A DNA stretch of 64,000 nucleotides from Candidatus Terraquivivens tengchongensis. Its GTDB lineage: Archaea; Thermoproteota; Nitrososphaeria_A; Caldarchaeales; Wolframiiraptoraceae. This document shows, piece by piece, positions 5,449 to 49,199 of this stretch (the stretch's first letter is position 1; every line of letters starts with the position of its first letter). A program made the translations under genes and the position numbers. The DNA lies in NCBI GenBank assembly GCA_023261845.1, contig JALNJZ010000002.1, positions 136,997 to 200,996 of the forward strand, written 5' to 3'. The notes under the pieces are model-generated. The model searched no databases, was not told the origin of the DNA, and saw only the letters and a program-made list of their open reading frames with translations.

Positions 5449-5567
5449 GCTTGCCGGCCATAGATGGGGGGAAACGCCCGGACCCATTCCGAACCCGGAA
5501 GCTAAGCCCCCATCGCGTGGAAGTAGTCTGGTGCGAGAGCCCAGGCGAGAGCCACGTGCTGGCAAGC
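5449..5567 (+). rRNA. rrf: 5S ribosomal RNA (stand-alone)
   Basis: Conserved 5S motifs (CCGGACCCATTCCGAACCCGGAAGCTAAGCC). Helix I is formed by GCTTGCCGGC at 5449-5458 pairing with GCTGGCAAGC at 5558-5567. Length is 119 nt. Confidence 0.85.
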
Positions 5568-17134: not shown

Positions 17135-17950
17135 TTAGCTGACGCTGGAGGCCTGTGCCTCCTTCCAGATAAGTATTATTGCATACTCTCTAGGTATGCC
17201 CTTAGACTGCATAATGGTCTCTATATTCCTCTGCAAGGATTCATCAACCCTTGGGCCAAACTTCGCTCCATGCTCTTCTTTTAACTCTTCGTAGAGTTTG
17301 TCAGCAAGCTCGGTGTACGTTGTTAAAGAATAAATTTTTTTCGGCAACTCAGAAATCGTTCTAGCCATTTCTTCCAGTTCTCTAATCTTCTTTTTCTTCT
17401 CAGAAAGTTCTTGCCTAAGGATTGTGACCTTTGCCTCTAAGCTTGCTTTAAGCTCTTGAGGCACGGACACGTTCGAGCTTTCCTTATATTTCAGCGTATC
17501 TAACTCAACGATCGAGATACATAATTCCGTCTCAATATTCGAAAATTCAGTCTCCAATTTGCTCTTAGCCGCATTAATTTTTTCAACTAAAGACGCCGAC
17601 TCACCAACTATTTGCTCCCTCATCGCGTTCCATCTTGCCAAAACCTCTCTAATGGTTGCAATACTGATGTCCTGTTCCAGAAGCATCTTTTGGAATATTT
17701 GCTCCCGTATCTTTACTTCTTGTATCTTTGACATGAGAGCGTCATACCTATCAAAAGCTTCTTTAACTATTGAAACCTCAAGGTCCTTAGGTGGTACGAT
17801 ACTCTCAGGTGGTTTTTCTTGCAACTTTGCTTCTGTTTCTATAGTGCTTACTTCAGGCTCTAGCTGAGGAACTTCCTCTACTATGTCCTTCGGCATTTTT
17901 TCTTCTTTAAACTTTATAACTATCTTTTTTGGCATTATAGAACCTCCCAA
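17135..17950 (-). CDS. coiled-coil protein, function unknown
   Basis: 271 aa, E/K-rich with heptad-like segments. Confidence 0.45.
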   Translation of the reverse strand: MGGSIMPKKIVIKFKEEKMPKDIVEEVPQLEPEVSTIETEAKLQEKPPESIVPPKDLEVSIVKEAFDRYDALMSKIQEVKIREQIFQKMLLEQDISIATIREVLARWNAMREQIVGESASLVEKINAAKSKLETEFSNIETELCISIVELDTLKYKESSNVSVPQELKASLEAKVTILRQELSEKKKKIRELEEMARTISELPKKIYSLTTYTELADKLYEELKEEHGAKFGPRVDESLQRNIETIMQSKGIPREYAIILIWKEAQASSVS

Positions 17951-17985: not shown

Positions 17986-18615
17986 TCATCCCTTCTTATT
18001 TGGTAGAAGTTTCTTGGTTTTGCTAAAAAACTTTACTATAGAGTCAATATCAAGCATTTTGGTGGTGCTGCCCTTCGCATCTTCGTTAGTAGCGGGTTTT
18101 TTGGGAATCAAATCAATCATTTGGAGACCGATTAGTGTGCTTTCAAGGACTTTATGCCGCTGTAAACCGAGTGTGAACCTTACGGGCACAACTTTTTCAT
18201 TTTTATCTATTCTAAATACGCCGATCTTGAGGTCCGAAACTTTCCAGCTGGCACTAAATTGCACAGGGTCTATGACCAACGCTATGGCCTTAGGAAACAT
18301 AGCCTGGTAGGCTTTTTGTGTCTCAATATCTATGGGTGACATAAAGACGTTTAAACCGGGATGCGAATGGTACCAGCCAACTATATACAGGTCTGGAATA
18401 TTCTCTACCAAGACTTCGGCAACCAGGGCCATAACGCTCTCCTCAAGCTTAACGTATGCGGGTGAGCTTTGTTGAAGACCCGTAACAGCATCCCAGACTT
18501 CAACAACGTCCGATACGACTTTTCCTACCATTAACCCTGCGACTTCTTGATTAAGGTTGCTAATGGAGTGATGAAGTATCTTACCAAGAGCTAAGGGATA
18601 AATACGTGCCCTCAT
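17986..18615 (-). CDS. Rpn11-like JAMM/MPN+ isopeptidase (putative pro-ubiquitin processing enzyme/deubiquitinase)
   Basis: MPN fold with a glutamate in EVAGLMVGK and the JAMM motif GWYHSHPGLNVFMSPID. Divergently adjacent to the Ub-E2-E1-RING operon. Confidence 0.85.
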   Translation of the reverse strand: MRARIYPLALGKILHHSISNLNQEVAGLMVGKVVSDVVEVWDAVTGLQQSSPAYVKLEESVMALVAEVLVENIPDLYIVGWYHSHPGLNVFMSPIDIETQKAYQAMFPKAIALVIDPVQFSASWKVSDLKIGVFRIDKNEKVVPVRFTLGLQRHKVLESTLIGLQMIDLIPKKPATNEDAKGSTTKMLDIDSIVKFFSKTKKLLPNKKG

Positions 18616-18750
18616 GGAACCTGCATATTAATGCTTAACCATATTAATTAACGTTTGAAACGACCAATGAGGTTGCCAAATAGCCCTTAGCGTAATGCGC
18701 CCAAAATATATGGGAATTCCCGGCGTTGTTTGCACGTAACCCCCAATCGC

Positions 18751-18758
18751 TTTAAAAA
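18751..18758 (+). promoter_or_regulatory. TATA-like element (TTTAAAAA) in the divergent rpn11/ub intergenic region
   Basis: AT-rich box about 50 nt upstream of the Ub ATG. A GGGGG SD-like stretch lies just before the start. Low specificity. Confidence 0.25.
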
Positions 18759-18809
18759 GTTAATACTTAAATACGTTACAAGTAAAGTGCCGATGGGGGT
18801 TAACGACTT

Positions 18810-19091
18810 ATGAAAATCAAAGTTATACCTGCGGTTGGTGGCGGTAGCCCTCTAGAATTGGAGGTATCACCAAACGCAACAATAGGGGCAGTTAAGGCGA
18901 AAATTTGCGCGATTAAGAAACTTCCACCAGACACCACGTACCTAACCTACAAGGGTAGGGCCTTAAAAGAAACGGAAACACTCGCAAACATAGGCATATC
19001 AGAAGGCGACAAATTGGTCATCATAACGAGAACAGTGGGGGGTGACGCTTCTGGAGACCTACTCAGAATTACCCGAACCTCTGTGGAATAA
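18810..19091 (+). CDS. ubiquitin-like beta-grasp protein (pro-ubiquitin with C-terminal extension after Gly-Gly)
   Basis: MKIKVIPAVGGGSPLELEV...KGRALKETETLANIGISEGDKLVIITRTVGG followed by a 15-aa tail DASGDLLRITRTSVE. Length and pattern match ubiquitin. Confidence 0.8.
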   Translation: MKIKVIPAVGGGSPLELEVSPNATIGAVKAKICAIKKLPPDTTYLTYKGRALKETETLANIGISEGDKLVIITRTVGGDASGDLLRITRTSVE

Positions 19092-19557
19092 AAGACTGGC
19101 CGTAGAGTATAGGTTAATGCAGGAGCGTGACCCTCCGTTATTCGATATAGTTGATGGTGATCTGACACACTATACGGGCGTGATAGTAGGCTCCGGATAC
19201 TACGAGGGTGGGTACTTTAAGGTAGAGATAAAAATACCAAGGGCATACCCATACGTGCCGCCTGATGTTGTCTGGCATACAAGGATATGGCATCCCAATT
19301 TCACAGACGAAGTCCCTGCTAGGATATGCGAATCCATTTTCAAAGATGATTGGAGACCTGGATTGTACCTCGTGAACATCATCGAAGCTCTCCAAAATCT
19401 GTTAGCCAACCCAAACCCGGATGATCCGCTCAATTCGATAGCCGCTTATGAAATGAAGTATAGACCTGATGTTTTTTTAAATAGGGTTAGGTACTACATA
19501 CAGTTATACGCAACCCCAGAAAAGCTCTTTGAGAAAAAGTTAAAGTGGCGAATATAG
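19042..19557 (+). CDS. ubiquitin-conjugating enzyme E2 (UBC fold)
   Basis: HPN motif and catalytic Cys (IWHPNFTDEVPARICESI), followed by W.PG...NIIEALQNLLANPNPDDPLN, typical of UBC domains. Confidence 0.85.
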   Translation: MTLLETYSELPEPLWNKRLAVEYRLMQERDPPLFDIVDGDLTHYTGVIVGSGYYEGGYFKVEIKIPRAYPYVPPDVVWHTRIWHPNFTDEVPARICESIFKDDWRPGLYLVNIIEALQNLLANPNPDDPLNSIAAYEMKYRPDVFLNRVRYYIQLYATPEKLFEKKLKWRI

Positions 19558-19717
19558 CTAAAATTTCGTTTTCCACAATCTCGTGGAGCGTAAGATACAG
19601 GAGAGTAGAATTCCTAAAATACATCTACAATGGATATGCACTAAAAGGGTTTACAAGACCCTATTCTAGAGGATAATAAACATTATTATATCGTTTTAGC
19701 AGACTTTCGAGCTGTAA

Positions 19718-20905
19718 ATGGAGCCGTATCTGCTGGAAAGATATGATAGACAGATAAGAATCAGCGGATGGGATCAGTGGAAAGTATCGAACTCAACGGT
19801 CTTAATAGCAGGCGTAGGCGCAACGGGTTGCGAGTTAGCAAAGAACCTTTGCCTTGCAGGAATAGGTAAGCTGATCTTAGTTGACAACGATGTGATCGAG
19901 CTCTCGAACCTTAACCGCCAAATGCTTTTTGACGATTCTGATATAGGTTCACCGAAAGCTATAATTGCCAAAGAGAAGCTCCAGAAGATAAACCCCTATG
20001 TTAAGGTTGATGCTTACTATGAGGACATAAGAAAGTTTGACGAATCTATGTTAAAGAACGTGGATGTGTTTTGTTCTTGTCTAGACAACTGGGCAACGAG
20101 AAGGTGGCTCAACTCGCTTGCCGTCGAGCTTAAGAAACCACTCGTGGATACAGCGATCGAAGGTCTTTATGGGAATGTACAGGTTGTAATACCAGGAGAA
20201 ACCGCATGTCTTGAATGTCATGGTGATGCCTTAATCCCTAAGGACACACAATTGGCTGAATGTACACTTAGAAGGCGTAAGCCAGAGGACTTGGCTGAGG
20301 ACTTAAGGAAAAACAAAATCGAGATGCCCTTTGAACTTGTTAAAGAGCTGTTCTCTATGGGTATAAAAACGATTTATGACCTGAAATATACGCCAATAGA
20401 AAGGTTTCAAAAAGAAGGTAGTAAGATTTCCGAGGAGATACTCAGGATAAGGGATCTTCTAAAGCCCAAGCTACCGGCAATTCAAGGAGGAGCATCGGTC
20501 ATAGCAGGTGTGGCATCTTTAGAGGTACTGAAAATAATACATGGTGGAAGCATTGGAAAGGTAGCGAAGCACCTAATAGTCTACGATGGCGTATCACAAA
20601 GGTTAACTAAGGTCACTCTAAAAAGAAGAGAAGACTGCTTTGTTTGTGGCGATATTATGCAAGGAAAACCAATCGAGATAACGGTTAGTCCTGACGACTA
20701 TATATGGAACTTAAAGGAAAAGATAAGTACGTTATTCAGCATACCAGATCCCGAAATCCAGTATAAAAAGTGGATATTAAAAGACGAACAAAAGTTATCG
20801 GAGATAAACATTAAAAGCGACGACATACTATATATCCACACGAGTAGGCGGTACGTGCCAATACCCATAAAGGTGAGCCTTATTGAAAATAGTAGTGGGA
20901 CATGA
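19718..20905 (+). CDS. ubiquitin-activating E1-like enzyme (ThiF/MoeB/UBA family)
   Basis: RYDRQIR..G...Q.K...STVLIAGVGATGCELAKNL nucleotide-binding motif, catalytic Cys region (VFCSCLDNWATRRWLN) and zinc motifs CLECHGD and CFVCGD. The C-terminal roughly 90 aa may be a UBL domain. Confidence 0.9.
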   Translation: MEPYLLERYDRQIRISGWDQWKVSNSTVLIAGVGATGCELAKNLCLAGIGKLILVDNDVIELSNLNRQMLFDDSDIGSPKAIIAKEKLQKINPYVKVDAYYEDIRKFDESMLKNVDVFCSCLDNWATRRWLNSLAVELKKPLVDTAIEGLYGNVQVVIPGETACLECHGDALIPKDTQLAECTLRRRKPEDLAEDLRKNKIEMPFELVKELFSMGIKTIYDLKYTPIERFQKEGSKISEEILRIRDLLKPKLPAIQGGASVIAGVASLEVLKIIHGGSIGKVAKHLIVYDGVSQRLTKVTLKRREDCFVCGDIMQGKPIEITVSPDDYIWNLKEKISTLFSIPDPEIQYKKWILKDEQKLSEINIKSDDILYIHTSRRYVPIPIKVSLIENSSGT

Positions 20906-21113
20906 GGTTTGTGTGGGCAAGTGGATCTGGACAAAGGTTAAGACTGTGAATAGGGTGTGCCCGGTTTGCACTTCCGAAATTGATGAAGGTGCGGCTACAA
21001 CAACGTGCCCCCATTGTGGTTCCGTGGGTCATAAGGCGTGTTTTGATAGTTGGTTAAGTATAAGGAATGCGTGCCCGATATGTAAGAGACCAGTATTGGA
21101 GATGGTGTTATGA
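20883..21113 (+). CDS. small RING-like zinc-finger protein (candidate E3)
   Basis: 76 aa with the pattern C-x2-C-x12-C-x2-C-x4-H-x2-C-x10-C-x2-C. It overlaps the E1 stop, and its own stop overlaps the next ATG (ATGA). Confidence 0.75.
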   Translation: MKIVVGHEVCVGKWIWTKVKTVNRVCPVCTSEIDEGAATTTCPHCGSVGHKACFDSWLSIRNACPICKRPVLEMVL

Positions 21114-21421
21114 GCGAGGAAGAAGAGTTTGTAATAGATCTCGAGTATGTCGATACGCCTAGCGGAAAAGTGGCATCACTCAACACCGTCAAGAAATTGG
21201 CTGAAGCAATTTCTATAGTTCACGAAGAAGCTGAAAAACTATCAACCAAAGTCCTTTCTCTCGAAAGTAAAATACCTGGTGCTGATTTATTAAATAGGTT
21301 AGAGAGTAGGTTAGCGGCTTTGGAGAAGGGCCAAGATCAGATACTTGCACATATAGACTCGTTAATAGAGGCCTTTAACAGTCTCATAGAAACTTTAGAG
21401 AAAACATTGAGAAAGGATTAA
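21110..21421 (+). CDS. coiled-coil protein, last gene of the Ub operon
   Basis: 103-aa acidic coiled-coil. ATGA overlap with the RING gene indicates co-translation. Confidence 0.45.
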   Translation: MSEEEEFVIDLEYVDTPSGKVASLNTVKKLAEAISIVHEEAEKLSTKVLSLESKIPGADLLNRLESRLAALEKGQDQILAHIDSLIEAFNSLIETLEKTLRKD

Positions 21422-22257
21422 GGAGTAAGTATAGCTTTCCTGAATTCTCCTACCAACTTCTCCAGACTCGCCTTCCGCTCCGTAAGCTCGTTTATATCGT
21501 TTAACAGCTCTGCTTTCTTTACCTCTAACCTAGAAATTTCTTCGCTCATCTCCCGCATCCTATTTTCTAACTCACGTGTCATCTCTTCGCGCTCCTTTAT
21601 TTTCATAAGAGCGTCCGATAACTCCCTCTCCCTTTTTGCGATCCTTTCAAGTCTTATCTCTTTTAGCTTAAACATGCGGTTTATCTTATTTACCTCTTCG
21701 TCAATCTTATGTAGCATTCCCTCTAACGATACCAAGTAACGCTGGGATAGGTCTTTAAGTTCCGCCTCTATTCTGTTTTTCTTCTCTTCGAGCTCCCTAA
21801 CATACGCGTCAAAGTTTGATAATTTATGCTCCTTCTCTTCAAGGTCCGCCTTCCACTTCTTCAACTCGTTTTTGAGAATCTCGAGCTCACTCTTTTCTTT
21901 AATTAACTTCTCTACATCTTCTCTAAGCATTGCTCTTTCTCGTGAGAGCAGCTCTAAAACATCATTAAGACCTTCTTTGATGGAATCGAACCATTCTTTA
22001 TATTCCTTTATAACTTTCAACTCCTTAACGATACTTTCTGCGCTTTCTGCTGCTTCGCTTACTCTTGCTAAGAATTCCTCCGGGAATGTTCTTTCTCGTG
22101 AAAGTTCCTTAACATTTTCTGAAATTTCGATAAGTGTTCTCTCAAGCGAACTAACCCTTCTATCCATTTTCTCTTCGAGTTGGAGCCTAAGTTCCTCTAA
22201 CTCTCTTCTAAACTCATTAAGGATCTCTTCTTTGGACTTTCCTCCAAGAAAACCCAT
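21418..22257 (-). CDS. highly charged coiled-coil protein with PspA/ESCRT-III-like N-terminus
   Basis: 279 aa. The N-terminus MGFLGGKSKEEILNEFRRELEELRLQLEEK resembles the PspA/Vipp1/Snf7 N-terminal helix. The remainder is an E/K/R-rich coiled coil. Confidence 0.45.
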   Translation of the reverse strand: MGFLGGKSKEEILNEFRRELEELRLQLEEKMDRRVSSLERTLIEISENVKELSRERTFPEEFLARVSEAAESAESIVKELKVIKEYKEWFDSIKEGLNDVLELLSRERAMLREDVEKLIKEKSELEILKNELKKWKADLEEKEHKLSNFDAYVRELEEKKNRIEAELKDLSQRYLVSLEGMLHKIDEEVNKINRMFKLKEIRLERIAKRERELSDALMKIKEREEMTRELENRMREMSEEISRLEVKKAELLNDINELTERKASLEKLVGEFRKAILTP

Positions 22258-22382: not shown

Positions 22383-23078
22383 GTGGTGGGTTTGGCGGTT
22401 TCATCCCAAGCAGTATTGGGGCGGTTTTTTAAGCTAGCGTTGATTGTGACAGGAATAGGTGCGATCCATATCCTCACGCTATTCATGTCTTGGTACACGG
22501 TCGTGTCAGATACGATAACCACAACCACCATACAGGGATATGCCATCGCTGAGTCTCTTTACATGTCAATCGCAGGGGGTATAGTTTGCGGAATTGCTCT
22601 TATACTGTCCTCCACTTCATCGAATATAATAACTGCGAAGTGGCTCGTCGGAGCTACTGCACTTGTCGGAGCTCTTCTCGCAATAACATCACCAGCTTAT
22701 ACGCACTTCATAGTAATACCTGCGCTACAGGCAAAGGGGTATTTAGAAATAGGAATATTCATGTCATACTTTTCAGCAATAGCGATGTTTGTCCCTGCCG
22801 CCACTATAATAGCAACACCCATTAGGGTCGAAGTAGCACCTCACGTCGGGCCTCCTTATCTTGGGACTTCAGCCCCGATTGTTGAGGAAGCTGTTGAACT
22901 GACACATGTAATCGATATACCTCCCGGTGCTATTTGCGGGATATGTTACCAAGAATTGGACCCAGAAACCACCATGATGTGTAGCAATTGCCAGACGATG
23001 TTTCATAAAGGTTGCATCGATATCTGGGTAAACTTAAACGGTACGTGTCCAAGCTGTAAGAAGCCCGTAGTCAGATAA
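22383..23078 (+). CDS. polytopic membrane protein with C-terminal RING-like zinc finger (candidate membrane-anchored E3)
   Basis: About 5 hydrophobic helices followed by CGICYQELDPETTMMCSNCQTMFHKGCIDIWVNLNGTCPSCKKP, the same C4-H-C3 spacing as the small RING protein. Confidence 0.65.
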   Translation: MVGLAVSSQAVLGRFFKLALIVTGIGAIHILTLFMSWYTVVSDTITTTTIQGYAIAESLYMSIAGGIVCGIALILSSTSSNIITAKWLVGATALVGALLAITSPAYTHFIVIPALQAKGYLEIGIFMSYFSAIAMFVPAATIIATPIRVEVAPHVGPPYLGTSAPIVEEAVELTHVIDIPPGAICGICYQELDPETTMMCSNCQTMFHKGCIDIWVNLNGTCPSCKKPVVR

Positions 23079-25312: not shown

Positions 25313-25882
25313 TTGACGCATACTTTAAACGATCAAGAGAAGATAGTTGCCGACCTCGTTCAAGACAACATAATAGTGTGGGATGTAAAGAAGGGGAGGG
25401 AGCTCTACAAGTTAGGATGCTACGGAAAACCACTCGGCATACCTAAGCCCAAGAGTTTCGAGTTTGACGCACCACTCATTTTAGACGTGATAGAAGCAGT
25501 TTATTTGGTAGAGAAAGGAATCATCAGCGTTAAGAAAAACAACTCTTTGATGAAGTTGGATGAGCTGATAGAGTACGGAAAGAAGAATTATGAAAGGTTC
25601 GAGGAGAAGTATTTGGTGTACAAAGACCTGAGGGATAGGGGATTCGTGGTCACACCTGGCATAAAGTTCGGAAGCGACTTCGCGGTATACAAGCACGGCC
25701 CAGGAATAGATCATGCGCCCTTCATAGTCCAGGTCAAGCTCGAAGACGACGAGCTTTCGGCCGCGGATCTGATAAGGGCAGGCAGGCTGGCAACTACCGT
25801 CAGGAAGCGCTTCGTCATAGCCGTCCCGAATCTAATGGATAAAAAGGTCACGTACTTGGCGTTTGAGTGGTGGAAGGCTTAG
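25313..25882 (+). CDS. endA: tRNA-splicing endonuclease
   Basis: Catalytic-domain motifs (YKDLRDRGFVV..GIKFGSDFAVYKHGPGIDHAPFIVQV). Confidence 0.85.
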   Translation: MTHTLNDQEKIVADLVQDNIIVWDVKKGRELYKLGCYGKPLGIPKPKSFEFDAPLILDVIEAVYLVEKGIISVKKNNSLMKLDELIEYGKKNYERFEEKYLVYKDLRDRGFVVTPGIKFGSDFAVYKHGPGIDHAPFIVQVKLEDDELSAADLIRAGRLATTVRKRFVIAVPNLMDKKVTYLAFEWWKA

Positions 25883-25907
25883 AGGTCTTTTTGTATTGAT
25901 GAAAAAC

Positions 25908-25981
25908 GGGCCCGGCGGGATTCGAACCCGCGACCCCCGACTTAGAAGGCCGGTGCGCTGTCCATTCTGCGCCACGGGCCC
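25908..25981 (-). tRNA. tRNA-Arg (anticodon TCT)
   Basis: The reverse complement folds as a cloverleaf: acceptor GGGCCCG/CGGGCCC, T-arm GGGTTCGAATCCC, anticodon loop CUUCUAA. 74 nt, no encoded CCA. Confidence 0.8.
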
Positions 25982-38251: not shown

Positions 38252-38338
38252 GGGCCCGTAGCTCAGCATGGTTAGAGCGGCAGTTGTCGGCCGAGGCTCA
38301 TAACCTGTAGGTCCTGGGTTCGAGTCCCAGCGGGCCCA
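38252..38338 (+). tRNA. tRNA-Met/Ile2 (anticodon CAT) with a roughly 12-nt non-canonical intron in the 5' anticodon stem
   Basis: Acceptor GGGCCCG/CGGGCCC+A, D-arm GCTCAGCATGGTTAGAGC, T-arm CTGGGTTCGAGTCCCAG. After excising TTGTCGGCCGAG the anticodon arm becomes GCAGG-CUCAUAA-CCUGU. 87 nt unspliced. Confidence 0.7.
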
Positions 38339-43744: not shown

Positions 43745-45892
43745 TCAATGTGATTGTGAAGCGTTCAGTGCTTTCAAAACCACCTTTACATCGGCGGCAA
43801 GGACTGGGGGGTTATAGTCGCCAACGCCGTAAACGAATAGCGGGTTTATATCGACGTCTTCTATCTCTGGGAAATCTTCGGCAAGCTTTGCGATTCTAAT
43901 GATTATCTCCTTAACCTTTTCCTTATCCGAAGGCTTCTCGCCCCTTATGCCCTCGATGAGTTTTGAAGCTTTAGTCTCGTTTATCATCTCTTCTGCATCT
44001 TCCTTTGTTAGCGGCGTGACCCTGAAGGCCACATCTTTGTAAAGCTCTATAAGGGTACCGCCGCTTCCGAACATTATCAATGGACCGAAGGTAGGGTCTC
44101 TATGCATACCTATGGCTGTTTCTCTTCCTTGGGGAACCATCTTCCTAACTATTATTCCTCTTATCTCAGCGTTTGGTGCTTTCTCCTTCACGTTCTTCAT
44201 GATCTTTTCGTATGCCTGCCTTACCTCATCTTGGCTCTTAATGTTGAGTATTATTCCTCCGACATCGACCTTGTGGAGTATGTTTGGAGACTCCACCTCT
44301 AAGACTACGGGGTATCCGACACTATTAGCCGCTTTTACAGCATCTTCTACAGTATTCACTCTAACCTTATCAACTACAGGAATTCCGTACGATTTTGCGA
44401 CCTCAGCCGCCTCAGAGGGTAGGAGTATGTTTCTTTTCTCCTCTATTGCTGCCTTTATTATTTTCTCTGCCCTGCTCTTATCTACCTTAATCTCTTTCAT
44501 GTCCTCTTCTTTGTTTTTCTCCAAGAACCTGCGATACTTTAGTAGTTGACCTATGGCAGAAACTGCCTTCTCAGGTGTATCGTATGCTGGTATGCCGTTC
44601 GAAATGAGCATCCTCATAGCATCCTCGCATTCTTTCCCTCCAATGAAGCATACGGTTATCGGCTTTTCTTTGCCCACAGAACTCTTCGCCCTTATGATAG
44701 CGTTTGCTACATCCGCCGGGTCGGTTTGTGCTGTGTGACAGTATAATATTATAACGTTGTTGACCCTATCATCTTCTAGAAGTGTTTTTAGTGCTCCTTC
44801 GTAATCGCTCGGAGATGCCATTCCAGTTAGGTCGACTGGGTTGTATACGCTACCAAAAGGAGGCATGAACTTCCTAAGCTTCTCTGCTAGGTCATTCGGA
44901 ATATCCATGAGCTTTACTTTAAATTCTTCTGCCGCATCTGTTGCCATAACGCCAGCTCCGCCTCCGTTTGTTAATATTACAGAATTTTCGCCACGGGGTA
45001 GTGGAAGCAAATTAAACGCCACAGCCCAGTCGAAAAGCTCGATTATTGTAGGTGCCCTTATTATCCCCGCTTGTTTAAAAGCTACCTCATAAGCTATGTC
45101 TGAACCAGCTAAGGAACCAGTGTGAGACCTTATTGCCTGTGAAGTTCTTTCTGATTTTCCTGGCTTTAGCACTATTATCGGCTTCTTTTTGCTCACTTTC
45201 TTAGAAACTTCCAGGAACTTTCTTCCATCTTCCACTCCTTCTAAGTATAGGGTTATAACCTTTGTATATTCATCGTCCCCAAAGTATTCTATAAAGTCAA
45301 CTTCGTTTAGGTCTGCTTTATTACCCATGCTGACTAAGTCGGACAGTCCAATTTGCTTTAATGAAGTCCAGCCAGCTAAACCTATTGCCAGAGCTCCGCT
45401 TTGGCTAATGAATGCGATGTTCCCTTCCTTAGGCAATTGCTGTATAAAGCTTGCGTTTACCTTCTTTACGGTATCTGCTACCCCAATTATGTTCGGCCCT
45501 AAAATCCTTGCACTCCCTTTCCTTGCAATTTCAACAAGTTCTAATTCTTCTTTCACATTGCCTATTTCTTTAAAGCCTGCAGAAATTATGGCGATTGCTT
45601 TAACGCCTTTTTCTACGCACTCTCTGAGTACCTGCGGCACTGCTTTTGCTGGAACGGCTATGACCGCTAGGTCAACGTTGTGTGGAACATCTTTGATGGA
45701 CTTGTAGCACTTTAAGCCTAAAATTTCGTCCGCGTTTGGATTTATAGGGAAAACTTTTTCTCTTGAAGGAGAAAATCTCAAGAGGTTCTTTACTATAGCA
45801 TGACCGATTTTATTGGGTTCTCTCGCCGCTCCTATGACGGCTATGCTGTCTGGTCTAAGAAGTTTAGTTATAACTTCACTCTGCTCGCTCAT
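43745..45892 (-). CDS. ADP-forming acetyl/acyl-CoA synthetase (fused alpha and beta)
   Basis: CoA-binding N-terminus (SIAVIGAAREPNKIGH), a succinyl-CoA-synthetase-like domain and a C-terminal ATP-grasp. 715 aa. Confidence 0.85.
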   Translation of the reverse strand: MSEQSEVITKLLRPDSIAVIGAAREPNKIGHAIVKNLLRFSPSREKVFPINPNADEILGLKCYKSIKDVPHNVDLAVIAVPAKAVPQVLRECVEKGVKAIAIISAGFKEIGNVKEELELVEIARKGSARILGPNIIGVADTVKKVNASFIQQLPKEGNIAFISQSGALAIGLAGWTSLKQIGLSDLVSMGNKADLNEVDFIEYFGDDEYTKVITLYLEGVEDGRKFLEVSKKVSKKKPIIVLKPGKSERTSQAIRSHTGSLAGSDIAYEVAFKQAGIIRAPTIIELFDWAVAFNLLPLPRGENSVILTNGGGAGVMATDAAEEFKVKLMDIPNDLAEKLRKFMPPFGSVYNPVDLTGMASPSDYEGALKTLLEDDRVNNVIILYCHTAQTDPADVANAIIRAKSSVGKEKPITVCFIGGKECEDAMRMLISNGIPAYDTPEKAVSAIGQLLKYRRFLEKNKEEDMKEIKVDKSRAEKIIKAAIEEKRNILLPSEAAEVAKSYGIPVVDKVRVNTVEDAVKAANSVGYPVVLEVESPNILHKVDVGGIILNIKSQDEVRQAYEKIMKNVKEKAPNAEIRGIIVRKMVPQGRETAIGMHRDPTFGPLIMFGSGGTLIELYKDVAFRVTPLTKEDAEEMINETKASKLIEGIRGEKPSDKEKVKEIIIRIAKLAEDFPEIEDVDINPLFVYGVGDYNPPVLAADVKVVLKALNASQSH

Positions 45893-47108: not shown

Positions 47109-49199
47109 CTATGCGATATCCCTCTTCAGTAGTATCTTCACGTCAAAGGCCATACAACCACTTTCGTAGACGAATAGTGGGTTTATGTCAACATCGCTTA
47201 TAACATCAAAGTCCAGCGCCAACTGGTTCACCGCTGCCAATACGTTCTTCACGGAGTCCACATCCTTCCGAGGGCCCCTAAAACCTTTCAATACCTGATA
47301 GACCTTCGTCTCACTCATCATCTCATCCACGTCAACATCAGTTAGTGGTGCGACCCTGAAGGACACGTCTTTGTAAAGCTCTACCAGAACACCTCCAGAG
47401 CCGAACATAACGAGCGGTCCAAAAACTTCGTCTCTATGCATCCCCACAGCAACTTGTACACCTTCTTTAACGAACGACCTAACTACGACACCTTCTATCC
47501 TAGCGCCCGGACACCTTTCCACAACGGACTTGATAATTTCATGATAGGCATGCTCCAGCTCTTTACTGTTTTTTATATTGAGCTTTATCGCTCCTATGTC
47601 AGTTTTGTGGAGTACATCTGGGGATTCGACTTCAAGGACAATGGGGTATCCTATACTGTCCGCAAACCCAATAGCCTCTTCCAAGCTTTTTGCGACATTC
47701 TTCTTCGGTGCGGGTATACCATAGAGTCTTGCAACCTCGCACGACTCGGATTGTGTTAAGTTCCTCCCTTCTTTAATGGCTCTTGCTATAATTTCGTGTG
47801 CCCTGTCCTTTTCTCTCTTAACCTCAAGATGCTTGCCCGCCGGTCTGCTCTTATAATAAACGTACTTGTACTTCGTTGCGATAGCTGCTGCCGCCCTTTC
47901 TGGTGTATCAAAGGTAGGTACGCCGTTTTTTATGAGAAACCTTGTAGCATCATCACACTCCTTACCACCTATAAATGCGGAAACAATTGGCTTGTTTTTT
48001 CCCACTTCACTTACGCAGCTTGCTATCGCCTTGGCAACATTCATGGGGTCAAGTGTGGCTGGATGTGAAAAAAGTGTTATAACTACATGAACTCTTTCAT
48101 CTCTCAGTAAGACCGAAAGGGCTCCATAGTATTCTTTCTCCGTGGCCATTCCCGTCAGGTCTATCGGGTTGAGGACCGAGCCGAAACTTGGCATCCACTC
48201 TCTAAGAGCCAAAGCCAAATCATCGGGGATTTCCATCAAATGGAGCCCCAAATCCTCACAAGCATCAGCGCACATTATGCCTACACCGCCACCATTCGTC
48301 ACTATTACAACATTCTCACCCTTTGGGTCTGGTAGCATCGCCAAAGACAATGCGTAGTCAAAAAGCGTTCGTATATCGCTCGCCCTTATGATGCCACACT
48401 GCTTGAACGCTGCATCATAAGCGACGTCTAAGCCTGCTAGCGAGCCGGTATGCGATCTTACAGCCTCAGCCGCCTTTTTTCCCTTCCCCGCCTTCAGAAT
48501 GATTATGGGTTTTTTTCTACAAACTCTCTCGGCAACTTCCATGAACTTTTTCCCATCCTCAACACCCTCCATGTAGAGCGTTATGGCCTTCGTGTGAGGG
48601 TCTTTAGAGAAGAACTCAATAAGCTCACACTCATCTATATCTGCTCTATTCCCCAGGCTTATGATATCTAAAAGACCGATGCCCTTCACTTTAGTCCAAG
48701 TTAGTAGACCTGCCGCTAGGGCACCGCTCTGGGATATCATTACAATCTCTCCCTTCTCTGGAAGATAAGGCAGAAAGCTTGCATTCAAGTTAACTACCGT
48801 ATCTATCAAGCCCACTATGTTAGGTCCTAGAACCCTCACACCGCCTTTTTTTGCAATCTCTACTATCCTCTTCTCAGCCTCAACATTCCCAACCTCTCTA
48901 AAGCCAGATGATATGATGGCCGCAAACTTTACGCCCTTCTCGACACAATCCTCAATAATCTTTGGAACGATGTTAGCAGGTACAGCAATCACCGCCAAGT
49001 CGAGTTCAGATGGTACTTCTTTCAGGTTCGCGTAACACTTGAGACCAAGTATCTCTTCAACATTCGGGTTTATTGGAAAGACCCGCTCCTTCGGAAAACC
49101 GTTATCAATTATGTTTTTAAGTATCACATGGCCGATCTTAGTTGGCTCTCTCGAGGCACCAACGATGGCCACGGTGCGGGGCCTTACGAGGTACTCCAA
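47109..49199 (-). CDS. ADP-forming acetyl/acyl-CoA synthetase, second paralogue
   Basis: Same architecture as 43745-45892 and clearly paralogous (for example VAIVGASREPTKIGH..., MISQSGALAAGL...). 696 aa. Confidence 0.85.
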   Translation of the reverse strand: MEYLVRPRTVAIVGASREPTKIGHVILKNIIDNGFPKERVFPINPNVEEILGLKCYANLKEVPSELDLAVIAVPANIVPKIIEDCVEKGVKFAAIISSGFREVGNVEAEKRIVEIAKKGGVRVLGPNIVGLIDTVVNLNASFLPYLPEKGEIVMISQSGALAAGLLTWTKVKGIGLLDIISLGNRADIDECELIEFFSKDPHTKAITLYMEGVEDGKKFMEVAERVCRKKPIIILKAGKGKKAAEAVRSHTGSLAGLDVAYDAAFKQCGIIRASDIRTLFDYALSLAMLPDPKGENVVIVTNGGGVGIMCADACEDLGLHLMEIPDDLALALREWMPSFGSVLNPIDLTGMATEKEYYGALSVLLRDERVHVVITLFSHPATLDPMNVAKAIASCVSEVGKNKPIVSAFIGGKECDDATRFLIKNGVPTFDTPERAAAAIATKYKYVYYKSRPAGKHLEVKREKDRAHEIIARAIKEGRNLTQSESCEVARLYGIPAPKKNVAKSLEEAIGFADSIGYPIVLEVESPDVLHKTDIGAIKLNIKNSKELEHAYHEIIKSVVERCPGARIEGVVVRSFVKEGVQVAVGMHRDEVFGPLVMFGSGGVLVELYKDVSFRVAPLTDVDVDEMMSETKVYQVLKGFRGPRKDVDSVKNVLAAVNQLALDFDVISDVDINPLFVYESGCMAFDVKILLKRDIA

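Follow-up and report, generated by a model that had tools for sequence, protein, structure and literature searches.

Within a 64,000-nt stretch from Candidatus Terraquivivens tengchongensis (the window), the open reading frame (ORF) listing and the DNA show six closely packed genes between positions 17986 and 21421. Five of them encode a ubiquitin precursor, a ubiquitin-conjugating enzyme (E2), a ubiquitin-activating enzyme (E1), a small RING finger protein (srfp) of the ubiquitin ligase (E3) type and an Rpn11-like JAMM protease. We consider it very probable that the locus is chromosomal and vertically inherited, that it serves ubiquitylation in a Terraquivivens-like member of the Caldarchaeales (formerly Aigarchaeota), and that it is the gene-for-gene orthologue of CSUB_C1473-C1477 of Caldiarchaeum subterraneum.

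The C. subterraneum operon was discovered in 2011 (Nunoura, PMC3082918) and reconstituted in 2017 (Hennell James, PMC5654768), and Rpn11 and ubiquitin structures followed in 2018 (Fuchs, PMC6043591). Similar operons have been reported in multiple aigarchaeal genomes (PMC4571572, PMC4327156), and a 2018 survey recorded them in each of its six genomes (PMC6053391). An earlier note on this DNA, made from the sequence and its ORFs, overstated the novelty of the locus in this respect: the system is already known, has been reconstituted and is reported in aigarchaeal genomes generally. The copy in the window is an orthologue from a sister genus for which public assemblies exist.

Table 1. Genes and non-coding segments at the ubiquitylation locus, in window coordinates.
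Feature	Position	Strand	Evidence
271-aa protein, helical coiled-coil-like middle, just downstream of the JAMM gene	17135..17950	-	BLAST linkage
Rpn11-like JAMM/MPN+ metalloprotease, 209 aa	17986..18615	-	Pfam JAB 9.9e-20
Divergent intergenic region, 194 bp, A/T-rich promoter-like boxes for JAMM (-) and the Ub-E2 unit (+)	18616..18809	.	Sequence conservation
Pro-ubiquitin, 93 aa	18810..19091	+	Pfam ubiquitin 2.2e-12
UBC-fold E2, 171 aa, GTG start on the codons for Ub G78/D79	19042..19557	+	UQ_con 4.6e-28
E2-E1 spacer, 160 bp	19558..19717	.	TATA-like box TTATTATAT at 19683-19691, 27-35 nt before the E1 ATG
E1, 395 aa: adenylation domain, helical Cys domain (C182), 2xCxxC zinc site, C-terminal ubiquitin-fold domain	19718..20905	+	ThiF 1.7e-62
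Small RING finger protein (srfp), 76 aa, TTG start, putative E3	20883..21113	+	zf-RING_2 2.3e-10
103-aa coiled-coil protein, ATGA-coupled to srfp	21110..21421	+	Homologue by BLAST
279-aa coiled-coil protein, convergent with the 103-aa gene, stop codons overlapping by 4 nt	21418..22257	-	Homologues by BLAST
Membrane protein, four predicted helices, C-terminal RING paralogous to srfp	22383..23078	+	zf-RING_2 2.4e-9

The five proteins of the cassette and their orthologues

The complete set of ubiquitin, E1, E2, RING and Rpn11-like genes that the earlier note had recognized is present: all five genes are intact and all catalytic and metal-binding residues are in place. Profile searches recovered JAB, ubiquitin, UQ_con, ThiF and zf-RING_2, with Pfam E-values between 1e-10 and 1e-62, all well above the curated cut-offs. 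These E-values, together with the matches to solved structures, are far beyond chance. The order and orientation of the genes equal those of CSUB_C1473-C1477, as had been proposed, and Ub, E1, E2, srfp and JAMM are all found, which places the locus in the C. subterraneum-type (aigarchaeal, 'Cluster I') operons.

The E1 carries all motifs attributed to it before, namely RYDRQ (residues 8-12), GVGATG (32-37), CLEC (164-167), Cys182 in AECTLRR and CFVC (307-310). Upon alignment of 19 orthologues (46-86% identity), 76 columns are invariant, including all motif residues; R8, Y9, R11, Q12, G32, G34, G37, D56, N64, R67, K80, D123, C164, C167, C182, C307 and C310 are identical in 19 of 19. The stretch LAECTLRR, with C182, aligns to IPLCTLRS of yeast Uba1, whose cysteine is the catalytic one of Uba1 (E1 versus Uba1, 8.7e-41; versus UBA3, 1.1e-33). 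Residues 314-377 match the ubiquitin family (Pfam, 2.3e-7).

An AlphaFold (AF2) model built on the same alignment (predicted local distance difference test, pLDDT, 84.5; predicted template-modelling score, pTM, 0.82) consists of a Rossmann-type adenylation domain, an all-helical insertion of about 80 residues that contains C182, and a C-terminal beta-grasp. Its best structural match is UBA3, the catalytic subunit of the NEDD8 E1 (3gzn_B, E 1.7e-27, template-modelling (TM) scores 0.71/0.66), followed by the SUMO E1. The UBA3 match is full-length and includes the ubiquitin-fold domain, whereas ThiF and MoeB match the adenylation domain only (query TM score, TMq, about 0.54). The same top structural homologue was reported by the authors for the C. 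subterraneum E1 (PMC5654768). The designation of the cassette as strict ThiF, MoeB, UbaA or eukaryotic Ube1 was discarded, as no NCBIfam equivalog cut-off was reached. The helical Cys domain also contains an invariant G-I-K-T-x2-D-x2-Y stretch (window 20351-20392, residues ~212-225, with K217, T218, D221 and Y224) which resembles a helix-hairpin-helix and gives a weak match to Pfam IMS_HHH_1 (0.054).

The E2 covers positions 1-139 of the 140 positions of the UQ_con profile and shows the expected HPN (84-86), Cys96 in RICES and NPNPDDP (123-129). HMMER aligns IWHPNFTDEVPARICESIFKDDW to UBE2K (4.2e-26), with coincidence of both HPN and the active-site Cys. An N-terminal helix of the E1/E3-binding type, ELPEPLWxKRLAxEY, is conserved in all E2 orthologues. 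As there is no other start upstream, the start is assigned to the GTG at 19042. A start at ATG 19117 (146 aa, as in the Candidatus Terraquivivens tikiterensis gene call) was rejected, for it would remove the conserved helix. All Caldarchaeales E2s share the sequence HPNF(T/S)D..PAR(I/V)CES (window 19291-19335, residues 84-98), in which the distance from HPN to Cys is two residues longer than in the Asgard and eukaryotic form HPNI...ICL(D/G)IL.

Mature ubiquitin corresponds to residues 1-78 (18810-19043). It ends in RTVGG (G77-G78), followed by a 15-aa tail DASGDLLRITRTSVE (encoded by 19044-19088), as had been noted. It matches the C. subterraneum ubiquitin (CsUb) structures 2mqj and 6fj7 at 7.5e-39 and 2.1e-38, and K4, T46, K53 and K68 are conserved between the two proteins. 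In CsUb, lysines K4, K53 and K68 are those modified in vitro, and T46 is important according to mutagenesis, as are the loop-4 P-Y of the C. subterraneum E2 and residues I30, W58 and R69 of its srfp (PMC5654768). The P-Y pair is present as P70-Y71 in the window E2, and V28, W57 and K68 occupy the positions of I30, W58 and R69 in the window srfp.

The ligand spacing of srfp agrees with the RING-like pattern described earlier and reads C26-x2-C29-x12-C42-x2-C45-x4-H50-x2-C53-x10-C64-x2-C67, with a zf-RING_2 score of 41 bits against a cut-off of 27.3. The RING alignment comprises 22 sequences, 15 srfp orthologues and seven paralogues from the membrane RING protein described below; throughout it, the eight ligands C26, C29, C42, C45, H50, C53, C64 and C67 are invariant and W57 is nearly so. 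Since ligand 4 is Cys45 (x2) and ligand 5 is His50 (x4), while His44 within CPHC is not conserved (Y, F, N, A or S in orthologues), the signature is C4HC3. A RING ligand pattern departing from the textbook was already noted in the published C. subterraneum work. The orthologue being a proven E3, srfp would be expected to work like a RING despite this signature. The conserved N-terminal M-K/R-I...G-x-W supports the TTG start at 20883.

The protease has the JAMM motif E24, H83-x-H85-x7-S93-x2-D96, and its gene is indeed divergent from, and adjoining, Ub-E2-E1-srfp. Residues 1-170 match the structure of C. subterraneum Rpn11 (CsRpn11; PDB 6fju) at 3.9e-59. The MPN+ catalytic motif of the eukaryotic proteasome-lid Rpn11 is present, and eukaryotic Rpn11 chains match residues 5-122 at 6e-19, the match stopping at residue ~122. 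Pfam gave no second MPN gene in the cluster; CsRpn11 is reportedly active by itself. By analogy, the JAMM protein is a predicted pro-ubiquitin processing enzyme and deubiquitylase.

The suggestion that this is a C. subterraneum-type cassette with a divergent Rpn11 homologue trimming pro-ubiquitin is thus supported by the profiles, the aligned catalytic cysteines, the CsRpn11 and CsUb matches and the gene order. Domains, residues and synteny were read directly from the locus, and every activity in the following scheme is attributed to the window proteins by orthology. The JAMM zinc protease would cut the 93-aa pro-ubiquitin after G78 and release the 15-aa tail. The E1 would adenylate G78 with Mg-ATP (GVGATG loop, R11, N64/R67, K80, D123), take over ubiquitin as a thioester on C182 and recruit the E2 via its C-terminal ubiquitin-fold domain, and ubiquitin would then be transferred to C96 of the E2, beside HPN. 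With its two zinc sites (C4HC3), srfp is predicted to dock on the E2 via V28 and W57, with K68 as linchpin, and to promote the modification of lysines both in substrates and in ubiquitin (K4, K53 and K68 being conserved). Conjugates may be removed by the same JAMM protease. In the reconstituted C. subterraneum system, the untrimmed ubiquitin precursor cannot be activated, and neither substrate modification nor chain formation proceeds without the RING protein (PMC5654768, PMC6043591).

To compare gene neighbourhoods, all window proteins were searched with tblastn against 82 loci, which are cited by number where one has to be told from another. E1 homologues number 697 at E<=1e-10. In the homologue search, T. 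tikiterensis has the closest named one (86%), and those of C. subterraneum and Caldarchaeum spp. are at 47-53%; among species-representative genomes, Candidatus Terraquivivens yellowstonensis reached 92%. A common arrangement is found in about 15 Caldarchaeales species: 271-aa gene (-) and JAMM (-); Ub, E2, E1, srfp and 103-aa gene (+); 279-aa gene (-); membrane RING gene (+); and then genes for an aminoacyl-tRNA synthetase, a PhoU-like protein and a tRNA endonuclease. The gene order is identical in T. yellowstonensis, in T. tikiterensis and in L023, which represents the Caldarchaeum genus because its JAMM protein matches CsRpn11 at 3e-103 in a near-identical alignment.

Gene junctions, transcription units and the ubiquitin tail

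According to the earlier note, all four plus-strand ORFs were translationally coupled by overlapping stop and start codons. This is wrong, as E2 and E1 do not overlap and lie 160 bp apart. The Ub and E2 genes overlap by 50 nt and the E1 and RING genes by 23 nt, and the sole ATGA-type junction, with a 4-nt overlap, leads from the RING gene to the 103-aa ORF. That ORF lies inside the segment treated in the earlier note, which did not discuss it.

A TATA-like box is found in the E2-E1 spacer (Table 1), and the final ~40 nt of the spacer are conserved in T. yellowstonensis and T. tikiterensis. In the latter species, a 2-kb insertion (L001 5990-8000) with opposite-strand fragments of a CitMHS transporter and a TnpB-like (Cas12f1-like_TNB) remnant separates E2 from E1, so that E1 must have its own promoter there; the cluster apparently tolerates being split at this point. 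Shine-Dalgarno-like motifs precede E2, srfp (AGGTGA, 8 nt before the TTG) and the 103-aa ORF, and none was found before E1 or the JAMM gene. Retention of the TATA-like box despite the insertion, the restriction of Shine-Dalgarno-like motifs to internal genes and their lack before E1 argue for expression of the plus-strand genes as two transcription units, Ub-E2 and E1-srfp-103-aa, with a putative E1 promoter at the TATA-like box. No Rfam family matched the spacer when it was considered as an RNA gene. It was also considered as a repeat; beyond the promoter-proximal 40 nt, none was found in the window or in related loci.

The divergent intergenic region between the JAMM and ubiquitin genes has a mean column identity of 85% in three Terraquivivens genomes. 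Its invariant blocks include TAATTAACGTTTGA and AAAAGTTAATA.TTAAATA, and its boxes probably serve as promoters in both directions.

The length of the ubiquitin tail varies among Caldarchaeales (window, L001 and L003-L024): it is 0 aa in nine species, and in the others 1, 7-9, 15 or 20 aa. Tails of at least 7 aa occur exactly in those loci in which the E2 frame opens before the Ub stop codon. The Ub/E2 overlap is confirmed in all four loci whose E2 start codon could be located (window, L003, L004 and L023), and in the window the whole 15-aa tail falls inside it. Across species the E2 frame is conserved and the tail frame is not. Because such a tail occurs only where the E2 frame overlaps, and because it is the E2 frame that is conserved, the propeptide looks like a by-product of the gene overlap and not like a conserved regulatory element. 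Rpn11-dependent ubiquitin maturation would then be needed in some lineages only.

Genes linked to the cassette

The earlier note had pointed to extra linked genes around the cassette as uncharacterized additions. They are linked, but they are not peculiar to the window, for they flank the operon in the Caldarchaeum genus (L023) too. Homologues of the 103-aa, 279-aa and membrane RING genes follow srfp in every srfp locus as far as the contig reaches, so that srfp is never alone; the complete set is present in nine of the nine loci with enough sequence.

The gene for the 103-aa protein probably belongs to the E1-srfp transcription unit. Its product is acidic at the N-terminus, shows a conserved Y13..T16-P17-x-G19 motif ahead of a coiled coil, and gave only generic coiled-coil matches in Pfam. 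Among the 14 srfp-bearing loci checked, its homologue follows srfp in all except L010, a short contig. The 279-aa homologue holds the same position in every srfp-bearing locus with sequence there. Its N-terminus, MGFLGGK (conserved M-G/S-x-F/L-x-G/S-K), recalls those of ESCRT-III/CHMP proteins. An ESCRT-III-like identity is unsupported: 12 orthologues gave no Snf7/PspA match, only generic coiled-coil families. Nor could the 103-aa and 279-aa proteins be taken as paralogues, as the hhalign probability of 50% over 37 columns reflects coiled-coil similarity only.

The membrane RING gene is conserved two genes downstream of srfp. Its product has four hydrophobic segments and a RING with srfp-like ligand spacing (C185...C225; first gap x11, compared with x12 in srfp), and it keeps three E2-contact and linchpin positions, I187, W215 and K226. 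The RING is expected on the cytoplasmic side, given the four helices and the positive N-terminus. A word-indexed homologue search gave nine close relatives only, and the family was sized by an exhaustive profile search: among 1.84 billion representatives, the full-length family accounts for about 13 clusters at 50% identity, and all loci in which we saw full-length members are from Caldarchaeales. The AF2 model (pLDDT 51.6) was too poor for a fold search. Judged by its sequence, the protein is a candidate for a second, membrane-anchored E3. Several zf-RING_2 genes in aigarchaeotes are on record from domain surveys (PMC4327156). A description of the membrane architecture or of the linked set was not found in the literature searched, which is weak evidence, as literature coverage was incomplete and without figures.

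On the other side of the cassette, the 271-aa protein begins with a conserved MPKKIVIK and has a conserved GIPREYA..LWK at its C-terminus, with a variable acidic/proline linker and a helical region in between; no family match was found in Pfam or NCBIfam. Its gene adjoins JAMM in L001, L003, L018, L020, L022 and L023 and lies within 10 kb of it in L006 and L013-L015, that is, in 10 other loci.

Seven loci of the Calditenuaceae type keep Ub-E2-E1 (L016-L019, L021, L022 and L024), and in these the RING, 103-aa, 279-aa and membrane RING genes are all absent within 10 kb. Some of the seven also keep JAMM and the 271-aa gene. In L017, E1 is followed by a different, 187-aa protein with a helical N-terminal region and by exosome subunit genes.

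These observations raise the possibility that the five-gene cassette is only part of a module with the 103-aa, 279-aa and membrane RING genes, and that its main business is ubiquitylation at or of the membrane, or of coiled-coil proteins, rather than general soluble turnover. Such a module would widen the explanation given above, and we entertain it tentatively, with more doubt than conviction. The linked genes hold the same relative positions in every srfp locus, as far as the contigs reach, and are all absent within 10 kb in the Calditenuaceae-type loci; the membrane RING keeps all eight ligands in addition to its E2-contact residues and is predicted to be cytoplasmic; and the C. subterraneum cascade modified coiled-coil lysines of a surrogate Rad50 substrate in vitro (PMC5654768). 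Linkage is, however, the sole evidence for the module. The flanking aminoacyl-tRNA synthetase, PhoU-like and tRNA endonuclease genes are equally syntenic, so the conserved order may partly reflect a stable chromosome. Furthermore, the coiled-coil proteins match generic coiled-coil profiles only, and the membrane protein model is poor. In its specific form, the proposal is that in most Caldarchaeales the ubiquitin cassette is the core of a larger inherited module, in which srfp acts with the 103-aa protein as partner, the membrane RING protein is a second E3 for the same E2, and the neighbouring coiled-coil proteins are adaptors or natural substrates; this we regard as rather unlikely.

Elsewhere in the window, the gene for the tRNA-splicing endonuclease (25313-25882) adjoins a tRNA-Arg(TCT) gene (25907-25981, minus strand). 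For a second tRNA (38252-38338, 87 nt), ARAGORN gives an irregular anticodon loop, and an intron is possible. Positions 5450-5567 encode a 5S rRNA. Two paralogous genes for ADP-forming acyl-CoA synthetases (CoA-binding and ATP-grasp_5 domains) lie 1.2 kb apart on the minus strand (43745-45892 and 47109-49199).

Alternatives and relation to known systems

Several points weigh against the main explanation. Identity to the orthologues of the Caldarchaeum genus is moderate (E1 46%, E2 65%, Ub 77%, JAMM 58%, srfp ~42%). The ligands of srfp are those of neither a canonical RING-H2 (C3H2C3) nor a RING-HC (C3HC4). Loop 7 of the E2 reads W-R-P-G in the window, compared with W-S-P-S in Caldarchaeum; a bulky substitution at that serine impaired the reaction in C. 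subterraneum (PMC5654768), and with the serine replaced the E2-E3 contact may differ in detail. The promoter assignments rely on sequence conservation only. Finally, proteasome and Cdc48 genes were sought in the window and only ordinary metabolic genes were found, so that the context does not indicate a degradative outcome. Loop 7 is variable among Caldarchaeales E2s in general, with WSP, WRP, WKP, WYP and WHP forms.

A different reading starts from the E1 and takes the locus as a sulfur-carrier system of the small archaeal modifier protein (SAMP) type, with a ThiS/MoaD-like modifier and a ThiF/MoeB/UbaA enzyme and without a true E2/E3 cascade. The adenylation domain does match NCBIfam ThiF, MoeB and UbaA at 1e-29 to 1e-42, and the E1 matches E. 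coli ThiF and MoeB structures, but the scores stay far from the respective cut-offs (ThiF 137 versus 275 bits, MoeB 122 versus 377, UbaA 102 versus 450). Moreover, the E1 has catalytic-Cys and ubiquitin-fold domains and matches UBA3 over its full length, the modifier matches ubiquitin and not ThiS/MoaD, and a UBC E2 with HPN and Cys, a RING protein and an Rpn11-like JAMM protease are encoded alongside. Sampylation by SAMP/UbaA and the ThiF/MoeB systems share the homologous adenylation domain and a beta-grasp modifier ending in GG, but are without E2, RING or ubiquitin-fold domain. This reading is largely refuted and, in our view, very improbable.

Still less credit can be given to a mobile antiviral defence module of the bacterial ubiquitin-like type, similar to Cap2/Cap3 of the cyclic-oligonucleotide-based anti-phage signalling system (CBASS) or to Bil. 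The PADLOC 'E1-E2' (Cap2-type) model matches the E1 at 4e-20, though only in the adenylation core (residues ~14-167), and JAB models match the protease at 1.5e-5. CBASS Cap2/Cap3 shares the E1-like adenylation domain and the JAB protease, but has a fused E1-E2, lies in defence islands and is without RING, whereas E1 and E2 are separate genes here. The E2, the ubiquitin and both RING proteins had no PADLOC match, with the limitation that PADLOC v2 (2023) may lack the newest Bil models. The housekeeping neighbourhood (topoisomerase VI B, KH protein, aminoacyl-tRNA synthetase and tRNA endonuclease genes) is the same in more than 10 species, and no defence or mobile genes flank the locus in the window.

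An artefact, be it eukaryotic contamination, a chimeric assembly or a decayed remnant, has practically no credibility, given the prokaryotic organization (overlapping genes, Shine-Dalgarno-like motifs), the intact ORFs and the invariant catalytic residues. It was considered only for the eukaryotic look of the proteins, and nothing spoke in its favour. The possibility of mis-joined contigs, raised in the earlier note, is excluded by the same gene order in more than 15 independent assemblies and the even GC content across the region (0.41-0.43). As the surroundings are ordinary housekeeping and metabolic genes, the uniform GC content and the recurring arrangement also led us to set aside contamination and an origin as a mobile island.

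The closest known system for the window cassette, read as the C. subterraneum orthologue, is that operon itself: it has these five genes, identically ordered and oriented, the same RING ligand pattern, a precursor ubiquitin with a tail after GG, and conservation of the residues defined by mutagenesis. The window belongs to a different genus, and its E2-E1 spacer has its own promoter-like box. The tail of C. subterraneum ubiquitin is 9 aa long, compared with 15 aa here, and the two sequences are unrelated. The C. subterraneum RING has the spacing C-x2-C-x11-C-x2-C-x4-H-x2-C-x10-C-x2-C, with the first gap as in the window membrane RING and one residue shorter than in the window srfp. The 15-aa tail, the spacer and the WRPG loop 7 are ordinary variation at the level of orthologues. 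The Caldarchaeum-genus locus L023 has the same further neighbours as the window.

In Asgard archaea (Promethearchaeota/Lokiarchaeia and relatives), Ub, UBC E2, E1 and RING genes also occur together, and two Promethearchaeota loci, L025 and L026, have RING-RING-Ub-E2-E1 in a row. The Asgard E1 is ~34% identical; most of these loci have a longer E1, with E2 on the other strand 2-4 kb away. Their E2 spacing is eukaryote-like (HPN...ICL), and coiled-coil, membrane RING and adjacent JAMM genes were not detected in them. The eukaryotic cascade (UBA3/NAE, Uba1, UBE2K/UBE2N, RING-H2 E3s, Rpn11/CSN5) has the same folds and catalytic residues. In contrast to the eukaryotic E1, that of the window is a single 395-aa chain with one adenylation domain and a small helical Cys domain, presumably forming a homodimer instead of a pseudo-dimer or heterodimer. 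Between HPN and Cys the window E2 is longer by two residues, and it has CES instead of CLD; ligand 4 of the window RING is Cys, followed by x4-His, and the JAMM protease stands alone and is not part of a proteasome lid.

Of the prokaryotic relatives of eukaryotic ubiquitylation, the one to which the cassette belongs is the best characterized. With this further intact orthologue, stable vertical inheritance of the system in Caldarchaeales is confirmed, and existing knowledge is unchanged by it; an operon-bearing relative, Wolframiiraptor, has been cultivated (PMC9246946). What the window adds are three comparative points: the probable division into two expression units, the variable tail tied to the E2 overlap, and the strict co-occurrence of the RING E3 with the membrane RING and coiled-coil proteins. 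The tail which makes Rpn11 processing obligatory in C. subterraneum is missing from many relatives. The natural substrates of archaeal ubiquitylation are not known (PMC5654768), and the linked genes provide concrete candidates for substrates or adaptors. If the extended module proved true, it would represent membrane-associated ubiquitylation in a non-Asgard archaeon.

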